The position numbers and the translations under genes were made by a program. The notes below the pieces were generated by a model. That model was given only the letters and a program-made list of their open reading frames with translations, ran no database searches and had not been told where the DNA came from. A stretch of 8,047 nucleotides of DNA, taken from IMG/VR virus record IMGVR_UViG_2531839580_000015; one strand, 5' to 3'. The stretch is from a virus (Duplodnaviria > Heunggongvirae > Uroviricota > Caudoviricetes). Positions 1 through 8,047 of the stretch are shown one piece after another (the stretch's first letter is position 1; each line of letters begins with the position of its first letter).

Positions 1-136
1 ACAACTGAGTAAACGAGAGAGGTATACCGACAAATGGCAGCGACGCACACACTCCCTCTGGCGTCACCGGGAATGGCACGCATCTGCCTTTACGGGGATT
101 TGCAACGATTTGGCCGCCGCATCGACCTTCGTGTGA
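1..136 (+). CDS. K: 3' end of tail assembly protein K homolog (partial, 5' truncated by window start)
   Basis: The frame using positions 2,5,8... is open from the window edge to TGA at 134-136 (44 codons). It overlaps the ATG of the downstream I gene (34) by 103 nt in a different frame, which is the K/I overlap I recall for phage lambda. The fragment is too short for me to confirm by sequence recall. Confidence 0.5.
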   Translation, partial: QLSKRERYTDKWQRRTHSLWRHREWHASAFTGICNDLAAASTFV

Positions 137-675
137 AAACGGGGGCCGAAGCCATCCGGGCGCTGGCCATGCAGATCCCGGCGTTTCGTCAGAAGCTGAG
201 CGACGGCTGGTATCAGGTACGCATTGCCGGGCGTGATGCAGGTAAAACCGAATTGTCTGCCCGTCTTAATGAGCCGCTGGAAAATGGTGCCGTGATCCAT
301 ATCGTGCCGCGTCTGGCAGGAGCCAAAAGTGGCGGTGTGTTTCAGGCTGTGCTGGGGGCGGCTGTTATGGCGGTTGCTATATGGATGCCGGGGGTAGGAA
401 TTATGGCGAGTAATCTGCTGTTTTCTCTCGGTGCCAGTATGGTGCTCGGTGGTGTGGCGCAGATGCTGGCACCGAAAGCCAGAACTCCCCGTACACAGAC
501 AACGGATAACGGCAAACAGAACACCTATTTCTCCTCACTGGATAACATGGTTGCCCAGGGCAATGTTCTGCCTGTTCTGTACGGTGAAATGCGCGTGGGG
601 TCACGTGTGGTTTCTCAGGAGATCAGCACGGCAGACGAAGGGGATGGTGGTCAGGTTGTGGTGATTGGTCGCTGA
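34..675 (+). CDS. I: Tail assembly protein I (lambda gpI family), 213 aa, apparently intact
   Basis: ATG at 34 preceded by GAGAGG at 17-22. The translation (MAATHTLPLASPGMARICLYGDLQRFGRRIDLRVKTGAEAIRALA...VVSQEISTADEGDGGQVVVIGR) matches lambda gpI at both ends, with a shorter, divergent hydrophobic Gly/Ala-rich centre. It sits 60 nt upstream of J, as in lambda. Confidence 0.9.
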   Translation: MAATHTLPLASPGMARICLYGDLQRFGRRIDLRVKTGAEAIRALAMQIPAFRQKLSDGWYQVRIAGRDAGKTELSARLNEPLENGAVIHIVPRLAGAKSGGVFQAVLGAAVMAVAIWMPGVGIMASNLLFSLGASMVLGGVAQMLAPKARTPRTQTTDNGKQNTYFSSLDNMVAQGNVLPVLYGEMRVGSRVVSQEISTADEGDGGQVVVIGR

Positions 676-693
676 TGCAAAATGTTTTATGTG

Positions 694-721
694 AAACCGC
701 CTCCGGGCGGTTTTGTCGTTT
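694..721 (+). terminator. I-J intergenic stem-loop with T tract (possible attenuator or mRNA structure in the late operon)
   Basis: AAACCGCC (694-701) and GGCGGTTT (706-713) form a perfect 8-bp inverted repeat around a 4-nt loop TCCG, followed by a T-rich tract TTTTGTCGTTT. It lies in the 60-nt gap between the I stop and the J start. Confidence 0.4.
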
Positions 722-735
722 ATGGAGCATGACGA

Positions 736-3700
736 ATGGGTAAAGGCAGCAGTAAGGGGCATACCCCGCGCGAAGCAAAGGACAACCTGAAGTCCACGCA
801 GTTGCTGAGTGTGATCGATGCCATCAGCGAAGGGCCGGTTGAAGGTCCGGTGGATGGATTAAAAAGCGTGCTGCTGAACAGTACACCGGTGCTGGACAGT
901 GAGGGGAATACTAACATCTCTGGTGTCACGGTGGTGTTCCGGGCAGGTGAGCAGGAACAGACACCGCCGGAGGGATTTGAATCATCAGGTTCCGAGACGG
1001 TACTGGGTACGGAAGTGAAATACGACACGCCGATTACCCGGACCATCACGTCGGCAAACATCGACCGTCTGCGCTTTACCTTCGGTGTGCAGGCACTGGT
1101 GGAAACCACCTCAAAGGGGGACCGGAATCCGTCGGAAGTCGCCTGCTGGTTCAGATACACGTAAGGTGGCTGGGTGACGGAAAAAGACATCACCATTAAG
1201 GGCAAAACCACTCCAGTATCTGGCCTCGGTGGTGGTGGATAACCTGCCGCCGCGCCCGTTTAATATCCGGATGCGCAGATGACGCCGGACAGCACCACAG
1301 ACCAGCTGCAGAACAAAACGCTCTGGTCGTCATACACCGAAATATCGATGTGAAACAGTGCTACCCGAACACGGCACTGGTCGGCGTGCAGGTGGACTCG
1401 GAGCAGTTCGGCAGCCAGCAGGTGAGCCGTAATTATCATCTGCGCGGGCGTATTCTGCAGGTGCCGTCGAACTATAACCCGCAGACGCGGCAATACAGCG
1501 GTATCTGGGACGGAACGTTTAAGCCAGCATACAGCAACAACATGGCCTGGTGTCTGTGGGATATGCTGACCCATCCGCGCTACGGCATGGGGAAACGTCT
1601 TGGTGCGGCAGATGTGGATAAATGGGCGCTGTATGTCATCGGCCAGTACTGCGACCAGTCGGTGCCGGACGGTTTTGGCGGCACGGAGCCGCGCATCACC
1701 TGTAATGCCTACCTGACCACGCAGCGTAAGGCGTGGGATGTGCTCAGTGATTTCTGCTCGGCGATGCGCTGTATGCCGGTATGGAACGGGCAGACGCTGA
1801 CGTTCGTGCAGGACCGACCATCAGATAAGGTGTGGACCTATAACCGCAGTAATGTGGTGATGCCGGATGATGGCGCGCCGTTCCGCTACAGCTTCAGCGC
1901 CCTGAAGGACCGCCATAATGCCGTTGAGGTGAACTGGATTGACCCGAACAACGGCTGGGAGACGGCGACAGAGCTTGTTGAAGATACGCAGGCCATTGCC
2001 CGTTACGGTCGTAACGTCACGAAGATGGATGCCTTTGGCTGTACCAGCCGGGGGCAGGCACACCGCGCCGGGCTGTGGCTGATTAAAACGGAACTGCTGG
2101 AAACGCAGACCGTGGACTTCAGCGTGGGTGCGAAGGGCTTCGCCATGTACCGGGGATGTCATTGAAATCTGCGATGATGACTATGCGGTATCGCACCGGG
2201 GGCGCGTGCTGGCGGTGAACAGCCAGACCCGGACGCTGACGCTCGACCGTGAAATCACGCTGCCATCTCCGGACCACGCTGATAAGCCTGGTTGACGGAG
2301 GGATCCGGTCAGCGTGGAGGTCAGTCCGTCACCGACGGCGTGAAGGTAAAGTGAGCCGTGTTCCTGACGGCGTTGCGATACAGCGTTGGGGGCTGAAGCT
2401 GCCGACGTGCGCCAGCGCCTGTTCCGCTGCGTGAGTATCCGTGAGAACGAGACGGCACGTATGCCATCACCGCCGTGCAGCATGTACCGGAAAAAGAGCC
2501 ATCGTGGATAACGGGGCGCACTTTGACGGCGACCAGAGCGGCACGGTGAATGGTGTCACGCCGCCGCGTGCAGCACTGACGCGAAGTCACCGCAGACAGC
2601 GGGGATATCAGGTCTGGCCGCTGGGAACGCCGAAGGTGGTGAAGGGCGTGAGTTCATGCTTCGCCTGACCGTGGCAGCGGATGACGGCAGTGAGCGGCTG
2701 GTCAGCACGGCCCGGACGACGGAAACCACTTACCGCTTCACACAACTGGCGCTGGGGAACTACAGGCTGACAGTCCGGGCAGTAAATGCGTGGGGGCAGC
2801 AGGGCGATCCGGCATCGGTATCGTTCCGGATTGCCGCACCGGCAGCGCCGTCGCAGATTGAGCTGACACCGGGGTATTTTCAGATAACCGCCACGCCGCA
2901 TCTTGCGGTTTATGACCCGACGGTACAGTTTGAGTTCTGGTTCTCGGAAAAGCGGATTGCGGATATCAGGCAGGTTGAAACCGCAGCCCGCTATCTTGGC
3001 TCGGCGCTGTACTGGATAGCTGCCAGTATCAATATCAAACCGGGCCATGATTATTACTTTTATATCCGCAGTGTGAACACCGTTGGCAAATCGGCATTCG
3101 TGGAGGCCGTCGGTCGGGCGAGCGATGATGCGGAAGGTTACCTGGATTTTTTCAAAGGCAAGATAACCGAATCCCATCTCGGCAAGGAGCTGCTGGAAAA
3201 AGTCGAGCTGACGGAGGATAACGCCAGCAGACTGGAGGAGTTTTCGAAAGAGTGGAAGGACGCCAACGATAAGTGGAATGCCATGTGGGCTGTCAAAATT
3301 GAGCAGACCAAAGACGGCAAACATTATGTCGCGGGTATTGGCCTCAGCATGGAGGACACGGAAGAAGGCAAGCTGAGCCAGTTCCTGGTTGCCGCTAACC
3401 GTATCGCGTTTATTGATCCGTCTAATGGCAACACAAGACCAATGTTTGTTGGTCAGGGCGATCAGATATTCATGAACGACGTGTTCCTGAAACGCCTGAC
3501 GGCTCCGACCATTACCAGCGGCGGTAATCCTCCGGCATTTTCCCTGACACCGGACGGGCGGCTGACGGCGAAAAATGCCGATATCAGCGGTAACGTGAAT
3601 GCGAACTCCGGGACGCTCAACAACGTCACGATTAACGAGAACTGTCGGGTTCTGGGAAAACTGTCCGCCAACCAGATTGAAGGCGATCTCGTTAAAACAG

Positions 3701-4095
3701 TGGGCAAAGCTTTCCCCCGGGACTCCCGTGCACCGGAACGGTGGCCATCAGGGACCATCACCGTCAGGGTTTATGACGATCAGCCGTTTGACCGGCAGAT
3801 TGTTATTCCGGCGGTGGCATTCAGCGGCGCTAAACATGAGAGGGAGAATAACGATATTTATTCGTCATGCCGCCTGATAGTACGGAAAAACGGTGCTGAA
3901 ATTTATAACCGTACCGCGCTGGATAATACGCTGATTTACAGTGGTGTTATTGATATGCCAGCTGGTCGCGGCCACATGACGCTGGAGTTTTCGGTGTCAT
4001 CATGGCTGGTAAATGACTGGTATCCCACAGCAAGTATCAGCGATTTGCTGGTTGTGGTGATGAAGAAAGCCACCGCAGGCATCAGTATCAGCTGA
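736..4095 (+). pseudogene. J: Tail tip host-specificity protein J (lambda gpJ family); reading frame broken into at least five segments
   Basis: ATG at 736 with GGAG at 724-727. The N-terminus MGKGSSKGHTPREAKDNLKSTQLLSVIDAISEGP... matches lambda J. The homologous reading continues through 736-1164, short pieces in alternating frames across 1165-1350 (in-frame TAA at 1162-1164, stops at 1240-1242, 1280-1282 and 1351-1353), 1350-2165, 2249-2434 and 2441-2668, then 2656-4095, which ends ...[10 protein letters not shown] with stop TGA at 4093-4095. Total span is 3360 nt against 3399 nt for lambda J. J-like peptides ([47 protein letters not shown]) are recoverable from different frames in 2165-2660. 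Confidence 0.85.
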
Positions 4096-4114
4096 ATTTT
4101 ATAACCCATATACG

Positions 4115-4138
4115 GGCGCCAGAAATGGCGCCTTTTTT
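4115..4138 (+). terminator. Rho-independent terminator downstream of J
   Basis: GGCGCC (4115-4120) and GGCGCC (4127-4132) form a 6-bp GC-only stem around the loop AGAAAT, immediately followed by TTTTTT (4133-4138). It starts 20 nt after the J stop. Confidence 0.7.
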
Positions 4139-4162
4139 ATTGCAGAAAAGCGAGAGGTAATT

Positions 4163-4759
4163 ATGCGTAAAGTTTGTGCAGCCATTTTGTCCGCAGCCAT
4201 CTGTCTGGCCGTATCCGGTGCGCCTGCATGGGCGTCTGAGCAGCAGGCCACACTGAGCGCAGGGTATCTTCATGCCCGTACGAACGCTCCCGGCAGCGAT
4301 AATCTGAACGGGATTAACGTGAAATACCGTTATGAGTTTACGGACACGCTGGGGCTGATTACGTCATTCAGTTATGCCAACGCTGAGATGAGCAAAAAAC
4401 GCATTACAGCGATACCCGCTGGCATGAGATTCCGTGCGTAACCGCTGGTTCAGCGTGATGGCGGGCCGTCTGTGCGCGTGAATGAATGGTTCAGCGCGTA
4501 TGCGATGGCGGGTGTGGCTTACAGCCGTGTGTCGACTTTCTCCGGGGATTATCTTCGCGTAACTGACAACAAGGGGAAAAAGCACGATGTGCTGACCGGA
4601 AGTGATGACGGTCGCCACAGCAACACGTCTCTGGCGTGGGGGGCTGGCGTGCAGTTTAACCCGACCGAATCCGTGGCCATTGATATTGCTTATGAAGGCT
4701 CCGGCAGTGGTGACTGGCGCACTGACGGTTTCATCGTGGGTGTCGGTTATAAATTCTGA
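4163..4759 (+). pseudogene. lom: Lom outer-membrane protein (Ail/Lom/OmpX/PagC beta-barrel family), prophage moron; frame interrupted mid-gene
   Basis: ATG at 4163 preceded by GAGAGG. The N-terminus MRKVCAAILSAAICLAVSGAPAWA is a typical signal peptide, and SEQQATLSAGYLHARTNAPGSDNLNGINVKYRYEFTDTLG... matches lambda Lom, as does the C-terminus ...AIDIAYEGSGSGDWRTDGFIVGVGYKF (stop TGA 4757-4759). Between about 4386 and 4462 the Lom-like reading moves through all three frames: DEQKTHYSDTRWHE in one, DSVRNRWFSVMA in another, then back to GPSVRVNEW. This leaves an in-frame TAA at 4439-4441. If the three shifts are sequencing errors the gene is intact. Confidence 0.8.
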
Positions 4760-4785
4760 TTAGCCAGGTAACACAGTGTTATGAC

Positions 4786-4812
4786 AGCCCGCCGGTTCAG
4801 GCGGGCTTTTTT
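4786..4812 (+). terminator. Rho-independent terminator downstream of lom
   Basis: AGCCCGCC (4786-4793) and GGCGGGCT (4800-4807) form a perfect 8-bp stem around the loop GGTTCA, running into TTTTTT (4807-4812). It lies between the lom stop and the stf start. Confidence 0.7.
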
Positions 4813-4823
4813 GTGGGGTGAAT

Positions 4824-7800
4824 ATGGCAGTAAAGATTTCAGGTGTACTGAAAGACGGCACAGGAAAACCGGTACAGAACTGCACAATCCAGCTGAAAGC
4901 AAAACGTAACAGCACCACGGTGGTGGTGAACACGCTGGCCTCAGAAAATCCGGATGAAGCCGGGCGTTACAGTATGGACGTTGAGTACGGTCAGTACAGC
5001 GTTATTCTGTTGGTGGAAGGATTCCCGCCGTCACATGCCGGGACCATCACCGTGTATGAAGATTCCCGACCCGGTACGCTGAATGATTTTCTCGGTGCCA
5101 TGACGGAGGATGATGCCCGTCCGGAGGCACTGCGCCGTTTTGAGCTGATGGTGGAAGAGGTGGCGCGTAACGCGTCCGTGGTGGCACAGAACACGGCAGC
5201 CGCAAAGAAGTCAGCCAGTGATGCCGGCACATCTGCCAGTGAGGCGGCAACCCATGCGACTGATGCTGCAGGCTCAGCACGCGCAGCCAGCACGTCAGCC
5301 GGACAGGCCGCGTCGTCGGCTCAGTCAGCATCTTCCAGCGCAGGAACGGCATCAACAAAGGCCAGTGAAGCATCGAAAAGTGCTGCTGCTGCAGAGTCCT
5401 CAAAAAGCGCGGCAGCTACCAGTGCCGCTGCGGCGAAAACGTCAGAAACGAATGCGGCAGCGTCACAACAATCAGCAGCCACTTCTGCATCCGCCGCGAC
5501 CACGAAGGCGTCAGAAGCAGCCACCTCAGCCCGGGATGCGGCGGCCTCAAAAGAGGCAGCGAAATCATCAGAAACGAACGCATCATCAAGCGCCAGTAGT
5601 GCCGCTTCCTCGGCAACGGCGGCAGGAAATTCCGCGAAGGCGGCAAAAACGTCCGAGACGAACGCCAGGTCTTCTGAAACGGCAGCGGGACAGAGTGCCT
5701 CAGCTGCGGCAGGCTCAAAAACAGCGGCTGCATCATCTGCCAGTGCCGCATCAACAAGTGCCGGGCAGGCCTCAGCCAGTGCCACCGCTGCCGGAAAGTC
5801 GGCAGAAAGTGCCGCATCGTCTGCTTCAACAGCCACAACGAAGGCTGGCGAAGCCACTGAACAGGCCAGCGCAGCAGCGAGGTCAGCTTCCGCAGCGAAG
5901 ACATCCGAAACGAACGCGAAAGCGTCGGAAACCCGTGCAGAATCCTCAAAAACGGCTGCCGCATCGTCAGCCAGTTCGGCGGCGTCATCGGCATCATCGG
6001 CGTCTGCTTCAAAAGATGAGGCGACCATACAGGCGTCAGCAGCGAAGGGCAGCGCCACGACGGCATCCACGAAGGCGACAGAGGCTGCTGGTAGTGCGAC
6101 GGCAGCAGCTCAGAGCAAAAGTACGGCGGAATCTGCAGCAACGCGCGCTGAGACAGCGGCAAAACGGGCAGAGGATATTGCATCCGCCGTGGCGCTTGAG
6201 GATGCGAGCACGACGAAAAAGGGGATAGTACAGCTCAGTAGTGCGACTAACAGCACGTCTGAAACGCTGGCGGCAACGCCAAAGGCAGTAAAATCAGCCT
6301 ATGACAATGCAGAGAAACGTCTGCAGAAAGACCAGAACGGCGCTGATATACCCGATAAGGGACGCTTCCTGAACAACATTAACGCGGTCAGTAAAACAGA
6401 CTTTGCTGATAAGCGTGGTATGCGTTATGTGCGGGTTAACGCTCCTGCAGGTGCAACATCTGGAAAATATTACCCTGTTGTTGTTATGCGTTCTGCTGGC
6501 TCAGTAAGCGAACTGGCATCAAGGGTCATTATCACCACGGCAACGCGAACCGCAGGCGATCCGATGAATAACTGCGAGTTTAACGGATTTGTTATGCCTG
6601 GTGGCTGGACTGACAGGGGGCGTTATGCTTATGGAATGTTCTGGCAATATCAAAACAATGAACGAGCCATCCACTCAATAATGATGAGTAATAAGGGCGA
6701 TGATTTGCGCTCTGTGTTCTATGTTGATGGCGCTGCTTTCCCTGTTTTTGCGTTTATCGAAGATGGCCTGTCAATATCCGCACCTGGTGCTGATCTCGTT
6801 GTTAATGATACGACCTATAAGTTTGGGGCAACAAATCCGGCGACTGAATGTATCGCGGCGGACGTTATCCTTGATTTTAAGAGTGGGCGTGGTTTTTATG
6901 AGTCTCATTCGTTAATCGTTAACGATAACTTGTCGTGCAAAAAACTTTTTGCCACAGACGAAATTGTAGCGCGTGGTGGTAATCAGATTCGAATGATAGG
7001 TGGGGAGTATGGGGCATTATGGCGTAATGATGGCGCTAAAACTTACCTGCTGCTTACCAATCAAGGTGATGTTTATGGTGGCTGGAATACATTAAGACCG
7101 TTTGCTATTGATAACGCAACCGGCGAACTGGTTATTGGAACCAAACTGTCTGCAAGTCTGAACGGTAACGCATTGACAGCAACAAAGCTGCAAACGCCAA
7201 GACGGGTTTCTGGGATTGAGTTTGATGGTTCCAGAGATATTACTTTAACCGCCGCGCATGTGGCTGCTTTTGCCAGAAGGGCAACGGATACATATGCCGA
7301 TGCGGATGGTGGCGTTCCCTGGAATGCCGAATCAGGCGCTTATAATGTCACCCGCTCTGGCGACAGCTATATTCTGGTTAACTTCTATACCGGAGTCGGA
7401 AGTTGCCGGACCTTGCAGATGAAGGCACATTACAGAAATGGAGGTCTGTTCTACCGTTCCTCAAGAGATGGCTATGGTTTTGAGGAAGACTGGGCAGAAG
7501 TTTATACCTCGAAAAATCTTCCACCAGAAAGCTACCCAGTCGGCGCACCAATCCCGTGGCCATCAGATACCGTTCCGTCTGGTTATGCCCTGATGCAGGG
7601 GCAGACTTTTAACAAATCTGCCTACCCGAAACTTGCAGCCGCTTATCCGTCAGGCGTGATCCCTGATATGCGTGGCTGGACGATTAAGGGCAAGCCCGCC
7701 AGTGGTCGTGCCGTATTGTCTCAGGAACAGGACGGCATAAAATCGCATACCCACAGCGCCAGCGCATCCAGTACTGATTTGGGGACGAAAACCACATCGT

Positions 7801-8047
7801 CGTTTGATTACGGCACTAAATCCACGAATAACACTGGTGCGCATACCCATAGTTTAAGTGGCAGCACGAATGCAGCTGGTAATCACAGCCATAGAGATGG
7901 CCGTCGATTTAACCCCAGTGTTTTTAAAGATACTTATCAATATGGTTATACAAGCTCAGGTCAAAATACCTGGGGTGTACAAGGCTCAGTAGGTATGTCT
8001 ACGGGGGCGTTAGCTAATACCAGTACAGATGGTAACCATAGCCACTC
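4824..8047 (+). CDS. stf: Side tail fibre protein (lambda Stf / Rac StfR-like), 3' truncated by window end; 1074 complete codons without a stop
   Basis: ATG at 4824 preceded by GGGGTGA. I translated the whole frame by hand from 4824 to 8047 and found no stop codon. The N-terminus [62 protein letters not shown]... is the conserved lambda Stf / StfR start. An Ala/Ser/Thr-rich shaft follows, then ...[76 protein letters not shown]... with repeated His-x-His motifs. The ORF track omits it only because it runs off the window. Confidence 0.9.
5190..6200 (+). repeat. Low-complexity Ala/Ser/Thr-rich degenerate repeat region encoding the stf shaft
   Basis: About 1 kb in which roughly two thirds of codons are GCN, TCN/AGY or ACN. 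An 18-nt motif AAR-ACN/TCN-TCN-GAR-ACG-AAY (peptide K-T/S-S-E-T-N) recurs four times at irregular spacing, at about 5436-5456, 5562-5579, 5645-5662 and 5898-5915. The region is stop-free in several frames on both strands. Confidence 0.75.

Follow-up and report, generated by a model that had tools for sequence, protein, structure and literature searches.

Apparent frameshifts in the lom gene of a draft Escherichia coli prophage contig as a probable consensus artefact of collapsed prophage copies

Background

The closest described relatives of the gene considered here are Lom of bacteriophage lambda and the other members of the Ail/Lom/PagC/Rck family (PF06316). As in these, the lom gene studied lies between the tail tip gene J and the side tail fibre gene (stf), has its own ribosome-binding site and is flanked by terminators, and its product has a signal-peptide-like N-terminus, ends in a terminal Phe and, once repaired, matches the family profile over residues 1-199 of 199. 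It departs from the family in that, as deposited, it is split into ORFs of 92 and 95 aa by three missing bases.

Two known sources of error in draft sequences resemble this situation. Where near-identical repeats have been collapsed into one contig, two groups of reads can be told apart at each column that differs between copies, giving the 'correlated SNPs' described with the Hawkeye assembly viewer (PMC1868940). Here too a prophage module known in several copies lies on a short contig, with anomalies at copy-differing columns and switches from one paralog type to the other; however, the published signature is one of the read alignment and the consensus normally keeps one base, whereas here the column is lost and frameshifts result. 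A search of the literature for assembler behaviour in which columns are dropped returned no description, only general accounts of collapsed repeats. The homopolymer indels of 454, Ion Torrent and nanopore sequencing likewise appear as single-base deletions that cause apparent frameshifts in otherwise intact genes. Unlike those errors, the deletions described below are in Illumina data, 40% of the single-base events lie outside runs, and their sites track the differences between paralogs.

Source of the sequence and comparison sets

The stretch of DNA analysed, called the window hereafter, is the entire 8,047-bp contig AQBV01000091.1 of the draft assembly GCA_000358595.2, as identified by exact-protein look-up. 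Through the protein cluster entry of its product ENG45180.1, the source strain was found to be Escherichia coli p0305293.12 (ETEC). P0305293.1 is listed as an enterotoxigenic isolate from Bangladesh, collected in 2011 and sequenced at GSCID/IGS, and the strain series name, the GSCID/IGS source and the WGS accession together suggest that p0305293.12 is part of the dataset of a multi-colony project. The paper describing that project reports several colonies per patient, Illumina HiSeq2000 paired-end sequencing at >200x and the use of Celera Assembler.

Four intact relatives (L001, L002, L005 and L006) were used as references for alignment of the whole window. Two of these, L005 at 1.63 Mb and L006 at 2.10 Mb, form a paralog pair in the closed genome of ETEC 504237. 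A further contig, AQBY01000093.1 of assembly GCA_000358655.2 (L004), is referred to as the sister contig. For lom, the allele set comprised 84 intact sequences, namely 80 viral-contig loci and the four references. Complete E. coli genomes carry a median of 2-3 copies of the module and up to 14, and the closest matches to the J segment of the window include complete ETEC genomes with 4-7 copies, of which 504237 has 4; it is from these related closed genomes that the multi-copy state is taken and that we infer the copy number of the source strain itself.

Content of the window

The window contains the tail end of a lambdoid prophage, in the order I-J-lom-stf, with the following features:

34-675, plus strand: tail assembly gene I, intact, L006-type
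736-4095 (about), plus strand: tail tip gene J, called as five separate ORFs
4114-4133, plus strand: terminator-like hairpin with a T-run after it, between J and lom
4163-4759, plus strand: lom, an Ail/Lom outer-membrane beta-barrel gene of a lambdoid prophage, from ORF calls and profile match
4439-4441, plus strand: TAA, out of frame in intact lom, ending the ATG-frame ORF 4163-4441
4786-4807, plus strand: terminator-like hairpin with a T-run after it, 3' of lom
4824-8047, plus strand: N-terminal part of the side tail fibre gene stf, open at the contig end, with no short deletions

An exact look-up of the 213-aa product of gene I returned this contig alone, because its start was called further upstream than in RefSeq; the sequence itself is that of the L006 protein. 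Near the other end of the window, between 7819 and 8047 in stf, all references diverge from the window and from one another with many indels, as is consistent with the mosaicism of side tail fibre genes in their C-terminal part; this mosaicism is likely to be the reason why the contig breaks there, near 8047. Several ORFs lie on the minus strand: 5321-6070 and 5416-6183 are antisense within stf, and a 57-aa ORF at 4760-4933 overlies the lom terminator. The gene table of the contig lists 5321-6058 and 4760-4933 as genes; all three minus-strand ORFs (5321-6070, 5416-6183 and 4760-4933) are probably spurious.

The lom gene as deposited and after repair

In the deposited record lom is present in two pieces, 4163-4441 (92 aa, ENG45180.1) and 4472-4759 (95 aa, ENG45181.1). 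When aligned with the intact lom of E. coli 99COLEC, the window is 99.1% identical (701 versus 704 bases), with exactly three 1-bp gaps. Each of these can be written as a column of an intact alignment that is missing from the window:

Between G4385 and A4386, plus strand: dropped column 1, GCTG[A/G]AGATG giving GCTGAGATG; G in L005, A in L006
Between A4427 and G4428, plus strand: dropped column 2, CATGA[A/G]GAT giving CATGAGAT; A in L005, G in L006
4463-4466, plus strand: dropped column 3, in or next to the G-run 4463-4465, GGCGGG[G/A]CC giving GGCGGGCC

At the second site, the local haplotypes of the 84 intact lom sequences divide into about 56 with A and 28 with G. At the third, L005 reads GGCGGGGCC and L006 reads GGCGGGACC, and removal of the G/A column from either gives the sequence of the window.

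An original prediction, made from the letters of the window alone, held that the Lom reading passes through all three reading frames and then returns to the first, leaving an in-frame TAA at 4439-4441, and both the alignment and the three-frame translation bear this out. As far as 4385 the Lom reading is in the ATG frame; from there DEQKTHYSDTRWHE is read in the second frame and then DSVRNRWFSVMAG in the third, and the ATG frame is regained after the third drop with PSVRVNEWF...GYKF; it is because of drops 1 and 2 that the TAA enters the ATG frame. The interval given for these shifts, 4386-4462, stops a little short, the third gap falling at the G-run 4463-4465, one to four bases past that end. 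The remainder of the gene was said to be intact and this was confirmed, with GAGAGG as ribosome-binding site 7 nt upstream of the ATG, the hairpins at 4114-4133 and 4786-4807 on either side, and a terminal Phe.

Conceptual repair of the three shifts, which had been expected to yield a product aligning end to end with the family, does so. With the three bases restored, the gene encodes a 199-aa Lom that ends in YKF, differs by 1 aa from WP_205897104.1 and matches Pfam Ail_Lom (PF06316) over 1-199 of 199 (E 1.3e-126, 420 bits for a cut-off of 23), whereas the profile match of the deposited fragments covers positions 1-79 and 105-199. The uninterrupted ORF expected for a signal peptide followed by a barrel is thus broken by the TAA in the record and whole once the three columns are put back. 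The lambdoid context is also the usual one, with lom between J and the side tail fibre gene in 99COLEC, in APEC E14033, in the annotation of 504237 and in the gene calls of the window. On the evidence here, the split would belong to the record, and the lom of the organism would be an ordinary member of the Ail/Lom family in its usual position. A gene that elsewhere is 99% identical to intact alleles, yet has three deletions adding up to -3 inside 80 bp, does not give the impression of random decay.

Short deletions in J and lom

Alignment of the window with the four intact relatives revealed 31 short deletion events within 700-4800. These form three patches, one in lom at 4386-4465 and two in J, which carries 28 of the events and is called as five ORFs because of them:

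1139-1344, plus strand: J patch 1, 6 events, 7 bases
2131-2653, plus strand: J patch 2, 22 events, 29 bases

Outside the patches and before position 5000, the window has no private substitution when compared with all four references. At 3193-3239, the J of the window is 36, 27 and 21 bp shorter than the J of L001 and L005, always in frame. We considered these length differences as a possible artefact and rejected this, the intact J of L002 and L006 being also short; they are natural allelic variation.

The positions of the short deletions coincide with sites that vary between the two paralogs of 504237. Within 700-4800, 27 of the 31 events touch a column that differs between L005 and L006 (25 if the alignment is taken strictly), for a chance expectation of 4.1 +/- 1.9 and a maximum of 12 in 2,000 trials of random placement. 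Seen from the other side, 25 of the 36 variable columns inside the patches are gaps in the window. Elsewhere, at L005/L006 differences, the window agrees over long stretches with one or the other of the two copies, whereas in the patches the column is usually missing.

The same relation holds when whole segments are compared. The segment 1125-1360, around patch 1, is 1 edit away from an L005/L006 consensus from which the variable columns have been removed and 7-8 edits from either parent, and the segment of patch 2 is 12 edits from such a consensus versus 29-32 from either parent. Apparent 2-bp deletions with flanking substitutions, at 1213, 2376, 2566 and 2580, turn out to be exactly single columns dropped at neighbouring variable sites, as for example in GTTGC[C/T]G[G/A]ATAC, which becomes GTTGCGATAC.

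In lom, the 504237 paralogs differ at five positions within 4375-4470, and the three gaps of the window are three of these five; the other two differences (4436 and 4457) are kept, with the L006 base. For the interval 4378-4435, 171 allele pairs were compared with the window after removal of their variable columns, and only the combination of L005 with an L006-type allele gave its sequence. No single pair among the sequences compared reproduces the entire interval 4378-4470, nor the interval 4378-4582 of the sister contig, the matches being confined to sub-intervals. The paralogs of the source strain must therefore be mosaics absent from the sampled alleles. The 4 events of 31 that lie off any L005/L006 difference are to be expected, because these mosaic paralogs differ from those of 504237.

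A collapsed repeat as the probable origin

We consider it highly probable (about 0.93), from these sequence comparisons, that the three lom frameshifts are an assembly consensus artefact of a collapsed repeat and not a real feature. According to this explanation, p0305293.12 would carry two or more lambdoid prophages with J-lom-stf modules ~94-99% identical to one another, and the short-read assembler would in some stretches have piled the reads of both copies into one contig. Each column differing between the copies would then have been left out of the consensus, producing patches of 1-bp deletions; with three such columns falling within 80 bp of lom, the reading would step through all three frames and then return. 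The removal of the columns predates deposit, because the GenBank proteins are already truncated. The software step responsible may have been the calling of a gap at ~50:50 columns in the Celera consensus or, alternatively, the stripping of ambiguity codes before deposit. Several points stand against the artefact: 4 of the 31 events lie off any L005/L006 difference, two of the L005/L006 differences in the lom patch (4436 and 4457) are retained, no single pair of the alleles compared gives the whole of 4378-4470, and the three lom gaps recur in a second deposited assembly, which taken alone could be read as a sign of real mutations.

The original prediction had offered a local error patch or a very recent inactivation of lom as the two more typical causes of such a pattern. 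The first of these is retained and the second is not, since the losses are at paralog-variable sites and J has 28 more of them. The errors would nevertheless be of a different kind from those envisaged, being systematic drops of columns, neither random nor confined to lom.

The sister contig and the possibility of a pseudogene

The second assembly is that of the sister contig. The 92-aa product is found on two contigs only among 153 billion gene positions, AQBV01000091.1 and AQBY01000093.1, both from one project, and the protein of the latter, ENG64245.1, shares a cluster entry with ENG45180.1 and has the same truncated length of 92 aa. Judging from the strain names, p0305293.12 and the isolate of the sister contig are probably clonal.

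The two contigs are identical from 3021 to 4385, and the sister contig has the three lom gaps of the window together with further ones at 4474 and 4555-4570. When compared by hand, its sequence at 4555-4570 is exactly what remains of the window-type and L006-type alleles once the seven columns at which they vary are all taken out. In J, by contrast, the sister contig has a base at all 23 of the deletions of the window that fall within the overlap. At every variable site in 1388-2117 and 2814-3021, the window is L005-type and the sister contig L006-type. From its sequence, each contig looks chimeric, with parts of two co-resident prophages. Different sets of deletions and opposite paralog types, in what is probably the same clone, fit the behaviour of an assembler and not inherited mutations.

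These comparisons bear on the best-surviving of the alternatives, namely that lom is a genuine recent pseudogene whose three real 1-bp deletions were inherited by clonal isolates of the same patient. The deletions are indeed in the deposited record, and ENG45180.1 and ENG64245.1 are both truncated to 92 aa in two separate assemblies. In lambda, lom is dispensable for phage growth, and decay of a dispensable gene would be tolerated. Nevertheless, we regard this explanation as very unlikely: the deletions fall on paralog-variable columns far above chance, an essential tail gene, J, would have to have acquired 28 further deletions of the same kind on the same contig, and the sister contig differs, with more gaps in lom and none of the J deletions of the window in the overlap. 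Furthermore, in 4,589 complete E. coli genomes, which together have 13,121 lom places, no place reached 99% identity over 4360-4490, and the deletions were found in none. The best complete-genome matches over this interval have 131 of 134 positions in common with the window, that is, they are intact alleles identical to it except for the three gaps. Confirmation of the indels in independent reads had been named as the result that would point to a real pseudogene; the three gaps are present in the second assembly, but this comes from a sister colony and the same pipeline, with differing drops, and is not independent.

A related but extremely improbable explanation is that the deletions were made in the cell, by recombination or gene conversion between prophages, with aberrant repair of the heteroduplex excising the mismatched base at each heterology. 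Such removal of mismatched bases would also place 1-bp deletions exactly at paralog-variable sites.

Sequencing errors and recoding

Random or platform-dependent sequencing errors, for example miscalled homopolymers or the end of a read at low coverage, might also be invoked, as the deletions are clustered in patches and all three lom gaps can be written as shortened runs of 2-4 bases (AA, AA or GG, and GGGG). We tested and rejected the homopolymer explanation, run context being a poor predictor of the deletion sites: 60% of the single-base events are in runs of at least 2 versus 44% for the background, and 10 of the 25 are in non-repeated bases, whereas paralog variability, which accounts for 27 of the 31 events, is a far better predictor. 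Random consensus indels are moreover not expected in Illumina data at >200x, and the three lom sites recur in the second assembly, so that an origin in sequencing error is scarcely credible.

Decoding of the frame changes by programmed ribosomal frameshifting or recoding into a full-length Lom, to which the net change of -3 and the intact start and end of the gene would lend themselves, has practically no chance of being correct, as it would need three successive shifts and bypass of the TAA at 4439-4441, the shift sites are the positions of paralog SNPs, and the arrangement is absent from the complete genomes searched and from the best 80 viral-contig relatives, all of which match residues 1-199 in one frame, without conservation of a programmed shift.

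Conclusions

A collapsed-repeat artefact in AQBV01000091.1 calls for a data-quality flag on this contig and probably on other multi-copy regions in the assemblies of the same project. It also serves as a warning that clusters of false frameshifts in multi-copy prophage genes can occur in the short-read drafts of this project and possibly in further drafts produced by that pipeline. The consequences are inflated pseudogene counts, the deposition of partial proteins, of which ENG45180.1 and ENG45181.1 are examples, and contigs that are chimeras of two prophages. The signature can be screened for, as it consists of short deletions that coincide with paralog SNPs.

For the organism itself the biological weight of the observation is small. 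To judge by the alleles compared, the real lom copies in p0305293.12 are most likely intact genes for a 199-aa protein, and the strain most likely has an ordinary, intact lom and J.
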